DNA of 63,999 bases, the filler included, from Diploschistes diacapsis (Eukaryota), in the NCBI GenBank assembly GCA_023645945.1. It is 12 parts of 12 records of this genome, joined end to end, with 100 filler letters (N's around TTAATTAATTAA, not from the genome) between each part and the next. Parts side by side here need not be neighbours in the genome. Positions count along the whole stretch, not along the records: positions 1 to 26,021 come from JALAIB010000192.1; 11 more parts are not named here. One strand, 5' to 3'. Positions within the stretch are counted from its first letter, which is position 1; the number at the start of each line of letters is the position of its first letter. Below are positions 3,146-11,933 of the stretch, piece after piece. The notes below the pieces were generated by a model that was not told the DNA's origin, ran no database searches, and was given only the letters and a program-made list of their open reading frames with translations. The position numbers were made by a program, and so were the translations under genes.

Positions 3146-3408
3146 ACTACAGAACGCTTAAGCTCAGAGCTACTTAGATTCGTATTTATATCCCATAGGA
3201 ATCGAAGTACCTACATACTTTCCACAGCCAGAGCAAAACATCATGTATTCTATATTGCGCTTTCTCTCACCCAACACTCTCCCCCAAATGCTGCTCACTA
3301 CCAATCTCCGCTACATATTGTATATACACATGACGATTTTGCATACTGCGGAGGAAAATATAGACCGTATAATACTACTGCTAACCAGGAATATCATATC
3401 GAATAATA

Positions 3409-3773
3409 CAGTCGGGTGCCAAAAGCAGTTACGTCCTCCCCATTTCTTACCAAAATCGATCCCAACAATATGCCAAATCGAAAATTAAAAAATTATAAAG
3501 AACTTCAACAGCATGAAATATACCAATAAAAATTTTTTTCTAAGATAGAGGTAAACATTTAAGAAAATGACTCGCGCCAAAAATCGGGCAACTATACCCC
3601 GTTTTTTTAGTTGACGTCCCCACCAAGAAAAAGCAGAATAAATAATTCAAAGCTTTAAAAAGCTGTTGGAATTTTTGTAACAAAAACGTTTTCGCGGAGA
3701 TATAAGGACTAGAACAGTGAAATTTTTCAATAAGAAATCCTGGGGGACCTAAACTGCTTTTGGCCTAATACTG
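3409..3773. mobile_element. Non-autonomous Tc1/mariner-type MITE (~365 bp)
   Basis: TA|CAGTCGGGTGCCAAAAGCAGTTACGTCCTCCCCA ... TGGGGGACCTAAACTGCTTTTGGCCTAATACTG|TA: imperfect ~33 bp TIRs starting CAGT, flanked by TA on both sides; AT-rich non-coding interior. Confidence 0.75.
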
Positions 3774-4382: not shown

Positions 4383-6378
4383 CTAAGCCGTCTTTGTTTC
4401 CTTTTGTGCCTTGATCTCGCCAGTGCCATACCTGCATCCATTAGACCCTGCAGGGATGTTACAGGCCGCAGTAGACTTACCAGGCGATAATGGCAATGCC
4501 CAGAAACGCGCTAACACAGCTGAACACCAAGGCCGCTATACCTCTGGCCGTAAAACCGGCAGGTAATGGCACCGGCGGCAAGGTCTCACCAGTCAAGTCG
4601 AAGAGATCTACTGTGTTGCCGGCAGCATTGCCCTTTACCGGGATATTCTGCGCCGCACATGCGTCCAAATGATTTTGGGGAATTGTCAGATTCTGGTCCT
4701 GAATGGCGAGCGGAGCCTCGATCATGGTTGCAACCAATCCCGTGTCTATGTGCCACTCAATGTGACAGTGAAAGAGCCAAACCCGTAAGAGCTGTCAGCT
4801 GAAGAGCTTATGCCATAGAGGTAGTCAAACTCATCTGGATTATCCGACTTGAAGCGAAGCACAATGTACGAGTTTGGCTTGACCATGAAAGTATCACGGC
4901 GCATCGGCACTTGCGGAAGGGTATCGTTGCCTGTGTATATACCCGCACTCTCATCGCCACGAGCAAGGACCTGGAAATTATGACCATGGAGGTGGAATGG
5001 ATGCTTCCCGGGGTCGAAGCTGTTCAGCACTATTTCGACTACTTGATCCTTCTCCAGAATGAAAGCGTTTGTGTTCGAACCATAGATCCCAACCTCAGAC
5101 GCGGTCGCGCCGGTGCTCAGCACAGTGTATAGTGTAGGGACTTTCGGGCCAACATACGTTACGTTATTGATGAAGGCGCTAGAGTGATTAGTTTCATGGA
5201 GAAGTTGAAGGCGAAGAGGCCGGAACTCACTAGTTGGCTCCGTTGCTCAAGTCACCCATGATGAAGTTCATTTCTACTGTCTGATCAACCTGGTCAAAAA
5301 GCTTCAGACCATCTTGAGGCACAAGGGTAAAGTCGTCGAAGGGATTGAACTTGTCGAGGACTCTAGGTTGTGGCAGCGGTGCCTTTTGGTCGTAGACAAG
5401 CCATCCTGTCACGTTGGGATTGAGCGTGGGTGGCACATGGTCGAAGAGATCCTATATACGTGAATCAAACTCTGATAATTGCGTGAGCCTCTTACTTGAT
5501 CCATACTTCCGATGACAGGAAAATTTGCTGAGGTATCATTGTGCATCGTTACCAGGACACTGTAGCGTTGAGCAGCTGTGATGTAGAGCATATCGGCCGG
5601 TGTAGGCTTCGTGCACACTCCGTCAACCTCTATGATTTGCATGGGATGACCTTCAAGCCAGAAGTATTGTCCCGCAAACGCGGCCATGTTGATGATTCGG
5701 AGCCTGTAGGTCTTTCCGGCCTGGACACTGATCGTAGCATTCTGCGTGTCATTCATCAAGGCCGCATCCGGTATTGGCTCCGCTCCGGTAGGGTTGCCTA
5801 CGCTGACGAACGTTTGCAGTAGATCAGGCATAAAACCGTGATACCAGTCTGACAGCGTTAGAACCATGTCTTCGTCATACATTTCTTTGAATGGGTCTTG
5901 AGGATCATCGATAACTATCGGGCCACGCAAACCGTCTGGGTAGATGCCGTCGTTATGCGCATGATACCAATATGTCCCAGCTTGAGTGATCTGTAACCGT
6001 TAGCTCACTCTGACGTGAGGGTACAAAGATGCTCACGTTGAAATCGTAAGTCATGGAGCCACCTACTGGGATGGCACATTGACTCACGCCAACTGGGCCA
6101 TCCATCTGGGTTGAGCCGTTCATGTAGAGGCCATGAAAATGTAAACTGATCGTCCGGTTACCCAGCTCATTATGTGCATTGACGACGACGCGATCGCCAA
6201 TGCTCGCGCGGATCGGAGGCAAAGGCCACTGTCCATTTATGCCAATAGTAGGTCGATAATAAGCTCCATCTGGGTTGGTGATAACCCAGTTAATCTTGAA
6301 GTCGTAGTTCACGGTAGCTGCAGCTGCGAAGGCAGTAAGACATGCCAACACAAGGATCACAGTTCTGCAGAAAGCCAT
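4383..6378 (-). CDS. fet3: Multicopper ferroxidase Fet3/FetC (6 exons)
   Basis: ATG at 6378 with signal peptide; Cu motifs [18 protein letters not shown] and, after removing intron 4785-4834, [20 protein letters not shown] (Leu at axial position); C-terminal TM ([23 protein letters not shown]); stop TAG at 4383-4385; four GT-AG introns plus one AT-AC intron. Confidence 0.96.
4785..4834 (-). other. Non-canonical AT-AC intron (50 nt) in fet3
   Basis: Minus strand: ...GAT AAT CCA G|ATGAGT...GCTGACAGCTCTTAC|GG GTT TGG CTC TTT CAC TGT CAC; this removal restores DNPGVWLFHCH, and the GT-AG pairs tried within the interval do not. Confidence 0.85.
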
Positions 6379-7994: not shown

Positions 7995-9374
7995 ATGGCG
8001 GACAATATCTTCGCGATTCCAGGTCGGTCACGTCGAGCCAGGCGCCATTTCTATAATCTGGAAGCTAATGGGGCCAAGTTTTCTTTATCTGTCTTCGAGA
8101 ATGTCTTGAGACAAGTGTTATAGTCTCGATTTTACTCGCCTTCTTGAAGCAAACAATAGGTCCCGAACGCGATCCTAAAACATACAAGAAGCTGGTCCGC
8201 CAGGTATGTTTTCTCCAAAATCCCTCTTTGAACAGCAGCTCAAACGTTTCTCTTAGGTCTGGGCGGGTACCGGTCTAGGCCTCTTGATTTGCATAATCGT
8301 CGGTGTCGGTATGATTGGAGCCTTCTATAGCATCGGGCTCAACGCTTGGTCCCAGACCGAAGACATCTGGGAAGGCGCTTTCAGCTTGGTAGCCACGGTA
8401 ATCATCACCATTATGGGTGCAGCGCTCTTGCGAGTCTCGAAATTGCAGGACAAATGGCGAGTGAAGCTTGCCAAAGCTCTCGAGGCTAGCAAATCTGTCA
8501 AAAAGACTTCAAGGTCTCGCCGTTTCAAAGTTTGGTGCGAGAAATACGCCATGTTTCTCCTTCCATTCATCACAGTACTTCGTGAGGGCCTCGAGGCCAT
8601 CGTCTTCATTGGAGGTGTGGGACTCGGTTCCCCAGCATCGTCTTTCCCGCTCGCTGTTTTCACTGGCTTGGGCGCCGGGGCTCTTATCGGGTTCTTCATC
8701 TATAAGTAGGATTGTTGGTCCAGACACACGCCCTACGCTAATATGAACAGAGGTAGCAGCTTCGCTAAAATCCAGGCATTCCTCATTGTGTCGACATGCT
8801 TCCTCTATTTAATCGCTGCTGGGCTTTTCTCGAAAGCCGTCTGGGCCCTAGAAATCAACGCTGTAAGCCTTCTTAGTATTGTAATTGGAACGAATGCTGA
8901 TGGTCCATAGTGGAATGCTGTTATTGGCGGCGACGCTGCTGAAGTAGGGTCAGGTCCTGGATCTTACGACATTCGCCAAAGCGTCTGGCATGTGAACGTA
9001 AGTGGTTTTCCGATGATTGCAACGGTCCGAAAAGGCTAACATGAAAGTGTTGTAATCCTGAAATTAACGGCGGTGGCGGATGGGGTATTTTTAATGCGCT
9101 CTTTGGCTGGCAGAACTCCGCAACCTATGGCTCGGTTATCTCGTACAACCTCTACTGGGTTACTGTGATTGTCGGCTTTCTGTCCCTGCGTCACAAGGAA
9201 AGAAATGGACATTGGCCATTACTTAAGCCTAAAAAAACAGAGATCTCAGATGACGACAGCTCAAGCAGCTACCAGCTAAATGACATTGAGATGGGTAGTA
9301 TGAGTGCAACGGAGACAGAAATTCAAGGCAAAACGGCAACGACCAACGTCGAAATCCAGAGCGACTCCTTATAA
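7995..9374 (+). CDS. ftr1: High-affinity iron permease Ftr1/FtrA (6 exons)
   Basis: [26 protein letters not shown] and [10 protein letters not shown] (two RExxE motifs), multiple TM segments, [36 protein letters not shown]; five GT-AG introns; divergent from fet3. Confidence 0.96.
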
Positions 9375-9911
9375 CGTCGCTCACATTCGGAGAATGGAGC
9401 ATACGCACAAAGCTCTAAGTTGAGGACAAAGATCAACATTGATGAGCATAAGTTGGACTGAATCAGACCTCATGATCGAGCAAGCTGTTTAATCTTTGCA
9501 CCACACGAGGTTGTTGGTCCGCCGTTGACACGGACGCGCCAAAGGACAAATCCCCCTCCCAGGGACTCGGAGCAACGGGCGGGCTAGTTAGAAACATACT
9601 AATAGACATAGTTTGAAATAGATAAAATATATTTCCAAGTTACCTCTTTACTCTGATGTGGTGAGCAGATCGCAAGTTAGAAGAGTTGGAGGAGGGAAGC
9701 TGAACATTAAGAAGCAGATGAAGTCGTAATCTGAAAAAGCAAAGCTGTGATTGGCAGAGTTCATTGTATCGGACTTTAGCATTTGGCTTTTGCCGAATGT
9801 GGGATTTTCCCCATCTAATATCTCACACTCGCCCCTTGCCTTTTTTCTTTTCACTTTCATGGCAGATTTCCCAAGTTTAGCTTCGCGTGAGCCAGGGCTG
9901 TTGAATCTAGC

Positions 9912-11933
9912 ATGGTCCTTAGGAAAGATCAGCTTGAAGCCAGCTTACAAGAAGAGAAGAAACTGATCCAGAATGGCAAGTTAAAGGACGATAATCCGCT
10001 AGACCTTAGCGAGTCCTTCCGCAGATTATGCGACGGCTGCAGGAGAAATGACCTGAAGGCTTGCCAGGAGGCCATCACTTCTGGTGCCAATATCAATGCT
10101 CGCGATGAGTTTGACTACACGCCACTCATCCTAGCCAGCCTATGTGGGCACTATGAAGTGGCTCAGGTTCTACTGGAATCAGGAGCACTCTGCGAGCGTG
10201 ATACCTTTCAAGGCGAGCGGTGTATCTACAGCGCCTTGAACGATCGCATGCGGAACCTTTTACTAGCGTACGACTATTCAAAGTCTACTGATCCCCTACA
10301 ACCTCTCGCTTCTCATATATTCTCTTTGCTGACTCGCGAGCATCCAAAAACCTCGGATATTGTTATCACCTCCGCCGACGAGTCCTTCAATTTGCATAAG
10401 TTCATCCTTGCTGCGCGATGCCCTTATTTTCAAAAGAAACTCACCAGTGATCCCGATACCTCGACGTGGAAGTTGCCCTCGTCGATCCCACCGCAGGCCT
10501 TTGAAGTTGCCATCAAATACGTCTATCTAGGAGAGCTCCCGCGTGACGTCGGTGGAGGACCGGGCACGGGTTTTTCGGAAGAGGAGGTACTGGAAGGCAT
10601 AGATAAGATCAGCAAGCAGCTCGAGATACAGTCACTATGGGATGGGATACTAGAGAACAACGACCGCCGCCTAGCCCGCCAAAACCGCGCCGCTGAAACG
10701 GCTCGTGGTCGCGCGCAACTAGACGCCTGGTTCAGAGACAACGTCATTAGGCACAAAGTCGTCATTGACACTTCGAAAGCCAATAATGTCAAATGGGATC
10801 GGAACAACGGCATCTACGCCGACATTCTCCTGCGTGCGGATGAGATCTCTGAAGACCTAACGTCTCTGCCAAGCGGTGTACAATCACCCGCCGCGGATGG
10901 CGGCATACCTATCGGCCCTCCGTCCCTCTCTGCCCCTTCAACCAACGGCACTCCAGACCATCGACAACCTGCTCCCCAAAAATCTACCCTCTTCCCCACC
11001 CACCGCGCCATGCTTCTCCGCTCAGACTACTTCACCGGCATGTTTTCCTCCGGCTTCCTCGAAGCCCAAGAAACGCCGTATCTGCACATCGTCACCGTCG
11101 ACTGCACGCCGGATGTGCTCGAAGCTGTCCTAGCCTTCCTCTACACCGAGAAAGCCGATTTCCCGCTTGACCTTGCCATCGATGTGCTCTTCGCCGCCGA
11201 CCTCCTCCTGATCGAGCGGCTGAAAAACAAAGCCGCCCTAGTCATCAGCACTCTTGGCAGCGGCGGTCTCACCCAAACCCCGATTCAGCAAAAGCCCCAG
11301 CAGCCCTCCGACGCCACGGCGAAACTCGAGAGAAACGGTCTAATGACGGATGTAGACGGCGATGCGAACCCCAATGACAACCTCCTTGACCCCTTCGAAA
11401 CCCTACACGCCGCATGGGAACTTCGCGTGCCGCGCCTCGAGACGTTCATCGCGCGCTTCTTCGCGTACAGGCTAGAGCGGTACGTCGACCTACCGGAGTT
11501 CGCGGCGCTGATCCGCGAATCGGCTGCCAGAATCAAGAATCGAGAGGAGACGGATAGTATCGAGCTGGTGGATGATATAAGGCATTATTTGAGCGAGCGG
11601 TTTAGATTGAGGTTCGAGGGGGAAGGGATTGCGGAGATGCTTGAGGGCGAAGGGGCGGCAAGGGCGGAAGGAGTGGAGGGGAGGGGACGTGAGGATGGGG
11701 AGTTGAAGTTGCGGGCTGGGGAGGATGGGAAGCCCGGGAAAGAGGGGGAAGTTGGAGGATTGGGGTTTGAGAATGCGGTGGGTGTCGGGACAGGGAACGT
11801 GTTCTTAGAGGGGGAGATTAGGACGCTGGATGGGGAGATCGCCGGGGACGAGTTCGCGGCCGATGCGATGAATTATCAGATGCTGCTGGGGAAGATCGAG
11901 GCGCTGTTGGAGAGGCTAGAGTTGGATGGGTAG
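9912..11933 (+). CDS. Ankyrin repeat and BTB/POZ domain protein (Btb3/ABTB1-like Cul3 adaptor), 673 aa
   Basis: Ankyrin repeats (INARDEFDYTPLILASLCGH), two BTB domains (LHKFILAARCPYF; HRAMLLRSDYF...LAFLYTE), conserved TDSIELVDDIR tail; intronless. Confidence 0.9.
   Translation: MVLRKDQLEASLQEEKKLIQNGKLKDDNPLDLSESFRRLCDGCRRNDLKACQEAITSGANINARDEFDYTPLILASLCGHYEVAQVLLESGALCERDTFQGERCIYSALNDRMRNLLLAYDYSKSTDPLQPLASHIFSLLTREHPKTSDIVITSADESFNLHKFILAARCPYFQKKLTSDPDTSTWKLPSSIPPQAFEVAIKYVYLGELPRDVGGGPGTGFSEEEVLEGIDKISKQLEIQSLWDGILENNDRRLARQNRAAETARGRAQLDAWFRDNVIRHKVVIDTSKANNVKWDRNNGIYADILLRADEISEDLTSLPSGVQSPAADGGIPIGPPSLSAPSTNGTPDHRQPAPQKSTLFPTHRAMLLRSDYFTGMFSSGFLEAQETPYLHIVTVDCTPDVLEAVLAFLYTEKADFPLDLAIDVLFAADLLLIERLKNKAALVISTLGSGGLTQTPIQQKPQQPSDATAKLERNGLMTDVDGDANPNDNLLDPFETLHAAWELRVPRLETFIARFFAYRLERYVDLPEFAALIRESAARIKNREETDSIELVDDIRHYLSERFRLRFEGEGIAEMLEGEGAARAEGVEGRGREDGELKLRAGEDGKPGKEGEVGGLGFENAVGVGTGNVFLEGEIRTLDGEIAGDEFAADAMNYQMLLGKIEALLERLELDG

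Follow-up and report, generated by a model that had tools for sequence, protein, structure and literature searches.

A 50-nucleotide (nt) segment of the fet3 gene of Diploschistes diacapsis, which begins with AT and ends with AC, is very probably a genuine short fungal intron with A and C as its terminal bases, and the major (U2-type) spliceosome most likely removes it constitutively. It lies at 4834..4785 on the minus strand of a 63,999-nt stretch of DNA, filler included (hereafter the window), joined from 12 parts of assembly GCA_023645945.1, and the gene it interrupts is predicted to encode a Fet3-type ferroxidase. To judge from the homologous sequences, the intron is an old, widely shared feature of fet3 and not special to the D. 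diacapsis genome: AT...AC termini appear at this site in many Lecanoromycetes and in representatives of several further leotiomyceta classes, and elsewhere the site seems to hold a GT...AG intron or no intron.

The segment is exactly 50 nt long (ATGAGTTTGACTACCTCTATGGCATAAGCTCTTCAGCTGACAGCTCTTAC), flanked on its 5' side by ...GATAATCCAG and on its 3' side by GGGTTTGGCTCTTTCACTGTCAC. When read through, it brings the frame to a stop after 31 codons (open reading frame (ORF) 4746..5246); when excised, it leaves a frame that is open through the conserved DNPG...HCH motif. Its length falls inside the 44-52 nt range of the four other introns of the gene, of which introns 1, 3 and 5 carry CTAAC or CTAAT branch sites with the A 9 nt from the 3' end. 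The splice sites and the putative branch site of the segment are listed in Table 1. A CAG at 4792-4794 (minus strand) stands right behind this branch site (CTGACAG), 3 nt from the branch A; joined to the AT donor it would shift the frame, and it is presumably too near the branch for use as an acceptor.

Through enumeration of all 38 GT, GC or AT donors against all 23 AG or AC acceptors between 4700 and 4900, we found 81 pairs that leave the frame open, and the full motif was restored by AT4834-AC4785 only. This junction is unable to slide, since the neighbouring bases differ (G/C on the left, A/G on the right). On the Pfam Cu-oxidase_2 profile, exon 4 covers positions 1-110 and exon 5 positions 112-135; on yeast Fet3p (PDB 1zpu), exon 4 aligns with residues 334-456 (ending ..FKADNP) and exon 5, its start being taken from the first whole codon, with residues 458-534 (starting VWFFHCH). 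The one residue absent between the exons on 1zpu is Gly, whose codon G|GG is split by the intron. A preliminary description of this DNA had proposed a 50-nt AT...AC segment breaking the fet3 frame here, which proved correct to the base. It had also held that removal restores the motif, which among the enumerated pairs is fully true of this one alone, and that retention would cost the protein its HCHIEWH copper ligands and its C-terminal anchor, with which the early stop agrees.

The fet3 region was present in three DNA sequencing runs: X1, which may be the source of the window, and X2 and X3, which come from other studies. No RNA run with window DNA was found among 7 runs. The X2 contig covers 4400-5733 with 24 differences from the window and the X3 contig covers 4670-5255 with 9; within 4785-4834 no difference is listed for either. 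The AT-AC termini are thus not a sequencing error, since the same bases occur in contigs of two other studies, and the earlier opinion that errors at both terminal bases were unlikely is borne out. Placed on the spliced model, 36 coding differences comprised 23 synonymous and 13 non-synonymous ones, with 4 and 3, respectively, in exon 5; one of them, 4783 C>T, changes GGG to GGA and is synonymous in the intron-split Gly codon. By this excess of synonymous differences in the spliced frame, exon 5 is under purifying selection in the frame that AT-AC splicing alone would produce.

The same site in related fungi

The closest proteins (70-73% identity) belong to lichen-forming Lecanoromycetes, and many annotated orthologues have 465-512 residues against about 590 and end shortly past 'DNPDK...'. 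Translated back, 'DNP-D-K' is CCN G|AT AAG, indicating an intron at the same place that begins with ATAAG. Two pooled searches gave 208 homologous proteins, and the motif was located in 206. Seventy of them continue with D after DNP (AT-type), 106 show the continuous DNPG.W..HCH, 17 run into an intron at this site whose first base is G (GT-type), eleven have an intron a few codons downstream and two are odd. The AT-type homologues read DK (57), DM (8), DE (3), DN (1) or DT (1), corresponding to G|ATAAG, ATATG or ATGAR. After DK (n = 56) the next residue is S in 24, Y in 11, F in 9, C in 6, L in 2, H in 2, W in 1 and P in 1, so that T at intron position +6 is compatible with up to 53 of the 56.

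The 3' end could be read where the read-through reaches exon 5, which was the case for 29 of the 70 AT-type and 7 of the 17 GT-type homologues. With in-frame read-through, the last residue is R (C|GN) in eight AT-type and G in two GT-type proteins; with read-through at +1 it is T (AC|G) in seven and R (AG|G) in one; and at +2 it is H or Y (YAY|) in 14 and K or Q in four. AC therefore fits 29/29 and AG 0/29 of the readable AT-type ends, and AG fits 7/7 of the GT-type ends, counted over rows that are related and not independent. Both kinds of intron thus occur at one site, which answers the orthologue comparison suggested in the preliminary description, and the termini co-vary as its notion of a compensatory AT-AC intron would have it.

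The arrangement is also present in DNA. A metagenome locus of 69% protein identity (L069) reads G|ATAAGT...CTGACGGAACTTCTCAC|GC, a 52-nt intron at the same site with a CTGAC branch site and the 3' end CAC, and it has the third and the last intron positions of the window gene too. It was found in a scan of the best 80 of 497 metagenome relatives, a sample biased to uninterrupted matches, in which L069 carries the AT-AC intron, L019 a GT-AG intron one codon later and L073 an intron after W, the rest being continuous. The pattern GCNGAYAAYCCNGATAAGT gave 118 chance matches in bacteria among prokaryote genome contigs, and the W.FHCH motif was nearby in 0/118.

In a gene tree (FastTree, exon-4 region, 114 columns, 208 rows), AT and same-site GT types require 4 changes among 89 rows (shuffled mean 15.8, minimum 11), indicating that the terminal type is inherited in clades. 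AT against everything else requires 23 changes (shuffled mean 59.7), in a tree too short, and with a 'continuous' class too ambiguous (no intron, or an intron spliced out), for counting origins.

Introns a short distance downstream were observed in other lineages: the GT-AG introns of L019 (853-916) and L073 (near 1533), and those of the proteins P0134, P0135, P0158, P0164, P0168, P0153, P0191 and P0195, placed after GV, GVW, GVWLF or HC. Fungal Fet3 genes have a hot spot of intron positions in this short stretch, which leads up to and into the HCH motif.

Eighteen AT-type homologues belong to named species: Ptychographa xylographoides, Xylographa trunciseda, Xylographa vitiligo, Peltigera leucophlebia, Lobaria immixta, Mycoblastus sanguinarius, Agyrium rufum, Lasallia pustulata, Pycnora praestabilis, Vezdaea acicularis, Sarcosagium campestre, Thelocarpon impressellum, Thelocarpon superellum, Trizodia sp., Candelaria pacifica (Candelariomycetes), Chaenotheca gracillima (Coniocybomycetes), Cirrosporium novae-zelandiae (Xylobotryomycetes) and Neodothiora populina (Dothideomycetes). 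Class placement was checked for 6 of the 18. All 18 public gene models are wrong at the junction, 11 being truncated after DNP and 7 having insertions or skipping the HCH motif, just as the preliminary description expected of gene predictors. Studies comparing iron uptake and multicopper oxidases among lichen fungi and related groups consequently use Fet3 proteins without copper ligands, and gene prediction permitting AT-AC junctions would mend these models. In Alternaria, the models P0079, P0084 and P0103 run into the same-site G-starting intron (DNPGK..., DNPGPA...) and end early; junction mis-modelling is therefore not confined to AT-AC cases.

The spliced form may be seen in Lobaria-like sequences of one 90%-identity cluster. 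The Lobaria immixta genome model P0209 reads DNPDKHSKPVKLHSFTNI (DNPDKHS...) and then skips the HCH motif, at residues about 470-486; the annotated protein has normal length and lacks the T1/T3 ligand motif, so the error is invisible to length checks. In the same cluster, P0016 (on 22 contigs) and P0211 are uninterrupted Logan-contig ORFs of 590 residues reading DNPGVWLFHCH, and P0211 differs from P0209 at 5 residues outside the junction segment. The short genomic ORFs P0210 and P0214 of this cluster run into intron 1 (YDFM|VSLTS), which indicates that the gene has introns in these organisms. P0016 and P0211 have a single N-terminal difference, at which P0210 shares the variant of P0016 and P0214 that of P0211. 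The uninterrupted ORFs are best read, from these comparisons, as spliced transcripts. No near-identical pair of a genomic 'NPD' ORF and a spliced ORF was found through all-against-all BLAST of the first 208 proteins, in which the best pair reached 92% (P0121 vs P0016).

Alternative explanations and mechanism

Four other explanations were considered for the segment. A U12-type intron, removed by the minor spliceosome, would account for the AT-AC termini and for nothing else, and we give it almost no credence. Apart from base 1, the 5' site of the window (ATGAGT) is the U2-type consensus, as are ATAAGT of L069 and the ATAAG of the 57 DK relatives among the 70, and the branch site near the 3' end is of the fungal CTRAY type in both the window and L069. 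Neither U12 5' site, /ATATCCTT or /GTATCCTT, was found in the segment; it begins ATGAGTTT, which mismatches /ATATCCTT at positions 3-6. Its last 20 nt are CAGCTGACAGCTCTTAC-like, with no U12 branch motif TCCTTAAC at 10-15 nt from the 3' end, and 'DIL', the reading expected from ATATCCTT, occurs in 0/70 AT-type relatives. Rfam gave no match over the 64-kb window, a span too small to say much on minor small nuclear RNAs. U12 introns start ATATCCTT (PMC5029451), as the preliminary description also stated, and U12 splicing is reported to be missing in Ascomycota/Pezizomycotina (PMC2846911). The proposal in that description of a natural AT-AC intron with U2-type signals is well matched by the 5' site, the branch site and the lack of U12 motifs. 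Equally slight is the chance that a GT-AG intron is used instead, giving a shortened protein. Of the GT-AG pairs, only 4883-4792 and 4862-4792 retain HCHIEWH, and both preserve an open frame; they remove 16 or 10 conserved residues including DNPG, which is invariant in the homologue alignment, and the stretch lost aligns with yeast Fet3p. Their donors GTCAAG and GTGCTT are poor, and the shared CAG acceptor lies just 3 nt past the branch A. That the segment is no intron at all, being a 50-nt insertion in a pseudogene or the product of assembly errors at the two odd bases, is very unlikely, although the frame is broken if read literally and annotated orthologues appear truncated. Against it stand the identical bases in the contigs from other studies, the synonymous excess that includes exon 5, the AT...AC arrangement with intact exon 5 in 70 of the 208 homologues, the agreement in length and branch-site geometry with the other fet3 introns, and the existence of spliced Lobaria-like ORFs.

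The preliminary description had further suggested an iron/copper-responsive switch through inefficient splicing. In such a scheme the poor AT-AC splicing would be deliberate and would let the metals set full-length Fet3 against a truncated or degraded product. The intron does lie directly before the T1/T3 copper-ligand motif, its retention leads to the stop after 31 codons, and its 50 nt are identical in three close genomes, though chance alone would predict just about one difference. Yeast AT-AC double mutants are spliced less well than wild type. The read-through products, however, are not conserved among relatives: of the 29 readable AT-type introns, 8 are in frame, 7 at +1 and 14 at +2, so retention would add residues in frame in some species, whereas in others the protein would end early in tails of unrelated sequence. 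These three length classes and the unrelated peptides leave no conserved retention product. The other intron signals are near consensus, which argues for efficient recognition, and the Lobaria-like transcript ORFs represent the fully spliced form. The switch is thus unsupported, and we regard regulated retention as a poor prospect.

Several points weigh against constitutive removal of the AT-AC intron by the major spliceosome. Excision in D. diacapsis is deduced and not directly seen. For most relatives the 3' AC comes from translated read-through and not from DNA; the H/Y class fixes YAY only, with C or T as last base, and a final C is certain just for the R and T classes; and some read-throughs are annotated models in which extra predicted splices may be hidden. 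In DNA itself the intron has been read from the window, from the two relatives nearly identical to it and from L069, and 79 of the best 80 metagenome loci (of 497) are without an AT-AC intron, which is far from universal. The transcript status of P0016 and P0211 is itself deduced, and their source may be a sister species of L. immixta and not L. immixta. The absence of U11, U12, U4atac and U6atac is presumed from published work and from the signals within the intron.

For removal by the major spliceosome, the following route may be proposed. U1 and U6 would recognise the 5' site, which is consensus in all but base 1. In the second step the intron's first base would then pair with its last as A-C, in place of the usual G-G non-Watson-Crick pair, a pairing suggested by analogy with an engineered yeast double mutant. 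Precise removal would join G|GG into the invariant Gly and give a complete Fet3-type ferroxidase of 584 residues. The intron probably persists because a useful gene would no longer be spliced if either terminal base alone reverted (to AT-AG or GT-AC). One might further speculate that it had a single origin before the divergence of the leotiomyceta classes, was held for hundreds of millions of years by lethal reversions, and had its slow second step co-opted to adjust Fet3 dosage to Ftr1 or to metal status. This extended history is unlikely in our view; were it true, the site would offer a natural, phylogenetically replicated test of first-last pairing in the major spliceosome, with a physiological read-out.

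The fet3 gene model and its neighbourhood

The fet3 gene was modelled with six exons, giving an open coding sequence of 1755 nt for 584 residues (Table 1). In the spliced model the copper motifs lie at residues 80 (HFHG), 122 (WYHAH), 412 (HPFHLHGH) and 473 (HCHIEWH), so that all four multicopper ligand motif types (HxH, HxH, HxxHxH and HCHxxxH) are present, and Pfam places three cupredoxin domains on the exons (Cu-oxidase_3, Cu-oxidase and Cu-oxidase_2). In the PDB comparison, which covered exons 4 and 5, yeast Fet3p 1zpu was the best match of both, with E 1.1e-35 for exon 4 (best laccase 4.5e-10) and 1.7e-18 for exon 5 (best laccase 3.4e-4). The C-terminal hydrophobic anchor in exon 5 is putative and was judged by eye.

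Table 1. Coordinates of the fet3 gene, its AT-AC intron and the neighbouring iron permease exon in the window
Feature	Position	Strand	Remarks
fet3 exon 1	6037..6378	-	ATG at 6378; signal peptide; HFHG motif; Pfam Cu-oxidase_3
fet3 intron 1	5991..6036	-	GT-AG, 46 nt
fet3 exon 2	5496..5990	-	WYHAH motif; Pfam Cu-oxidase domain
fet3 intron 2	5452..5495	-	GT-AG, 44 nt
fet3 exon 3	5231..5451	-	spliced gene model
fet3 intron 3	5179..5230	-	GT-AG, 52 nt; L069 has an intron at the same position
fet3 exon 4	4835..5178	-	HPFHLHGH ... RFKSDNP + G; Pfam Cu-oxidase_2, 1zpu
fet3 intron 4	4785..4834	-	AT-AC, 50 nt; splits the Gly codon of DNPG|VW in phase 1
5' splice site ATGAGT	4829..4834	-	GTGAGT of introns 1 and 3 with G1 -> A
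putative branch site CTGAC	4794..4798	-	branch A at 4795, 10 nt from the 3' end
3' end TAC|	4785..4787	-	pyrimidine-A-C replacing YAG; segment ends TCTTAC
fet3 exon 5	4481..4784	-	GG, then HCH region ... hydrophobic C-terminal anchor; Pfam Cu-oxidase_2, 1zpu
fet3 intron 5	4432..4480	-	GT-AG, 49 nt; L069 has an intron at the same position
fet3 exon 6	4383..4431	-	short tail, stop 4385-4383; WYG.GE tail common to homologues
FTR1 iron permease exon	8257..8709	+	REGLE motif; Pfam PF03239, E 8.7e-35; divergent from fet3

With the FTR1 exon on the strand opposite to fet3, the two genes form a divergent pair, the usual one for high-affinity iron uptake. A second open stretch was observed near the ftr1 exon at 9045-9374 (plus strand). 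The arrangement resembles yeast Fet3p/Ftr1p (1zpu) in the three cupredoxin domains, the four copper motifs and the C-terminal anchor, with FTR1 adjoining here. The yeast FET3 gene is not known to have introns.

Further away, a long open frame (680 residues) at 9891-11933 (plus strand) encodes ankyrin repeats and a BTB/POZ domain and has no relation to the fet3 intron. The region at 3400-3760, downstream of fet3, is AT-rich with short A/T runs and holds no long ORF.

Comparison with known AT-AC introns

U2-type AT-AC introns as such are already known, and so is AT-AC splicing in fungi that lack a minor spliceosome. New are the deeply shared fet3 site, its alternation with GT-AG introns of matched termini and its systematic mis-annotation. 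Literature searches on AT-AC together with Fet3, ferroxidases, lichens or Pezizomycotina brought up no paper treating the fet3 intron; the matches for AT-AC with lichens were polyketide-synthase papers, in which AT-AC presumably stands for enzyme domains.

U2-type ('type II') AT-AC introns of animals and plants are described in Sheth et al. 2006 (PMC1557818), PMC5029451 and PMC7072748. Like the fet3 intron, they have AT/AC termini, an otherwise U2-type 5' site and no U12 motifs, and their termini show strong evolutionary conservation. In metazoans they have a strong /ATAAGT consensus, unlike the U12 site (PMC5029451); this consensus equals the ATAAGT of the fet3 relatives, the window having ATGAGT. 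The fet3 intron differs from them in being short (about 50 nt) with the branch 10 nt from the 3' end, in residing in a lineage reported to be without any minor spliceosome, and in that a single orthologous site has AT-AC, GT-AG or no intron depending on the class of Pezizomycotina. The /ATAAGT signature of animal U2-type AT-AC introns thus exists, in conserved introns, in Pezizomycotina too. AT-AC junctions are rare in fungal annotations according to PMC7072748, and in Trichoderma RNA sequencing they made up 69 of 14305 junctions (PMC4324775).

With U12-type AT-AC introns the likeness is limited to the terminal dinucleotides, the /ATATCCTT start and the TCCTTAAC branch being absent from the fet3 intron. 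The nested AT-AC intron of Saccharomyces cerevisiae RPL30 (PMC5029451) is likewise a natural junction in an ascomycete without a minor spliceosome. It is a side product of 1-2%, and its 5' site resembles neither class, whereas the signals of the fet3 intron are U2-type consensus and the conserved protein can be made only if it is removed. The engineered G>A/G>C intron, an AT-AC intron spliced in yeast (Parker and Siliciano 1993, as cited in PMC5029451), shares the mutual compensation between first and last base in a host with the major spliceosome alone. That double mutant is artificial, while the fet3 intron is natural, fixed in many species and must be removed for a functional protein. The fet3 intron could serve as a convenient short test intron for second-step proofreading, and its termini, co-varying perfectly where readable (29 + 7 cases), make it the natural equivalent of the classic suppression experiment in yeast.

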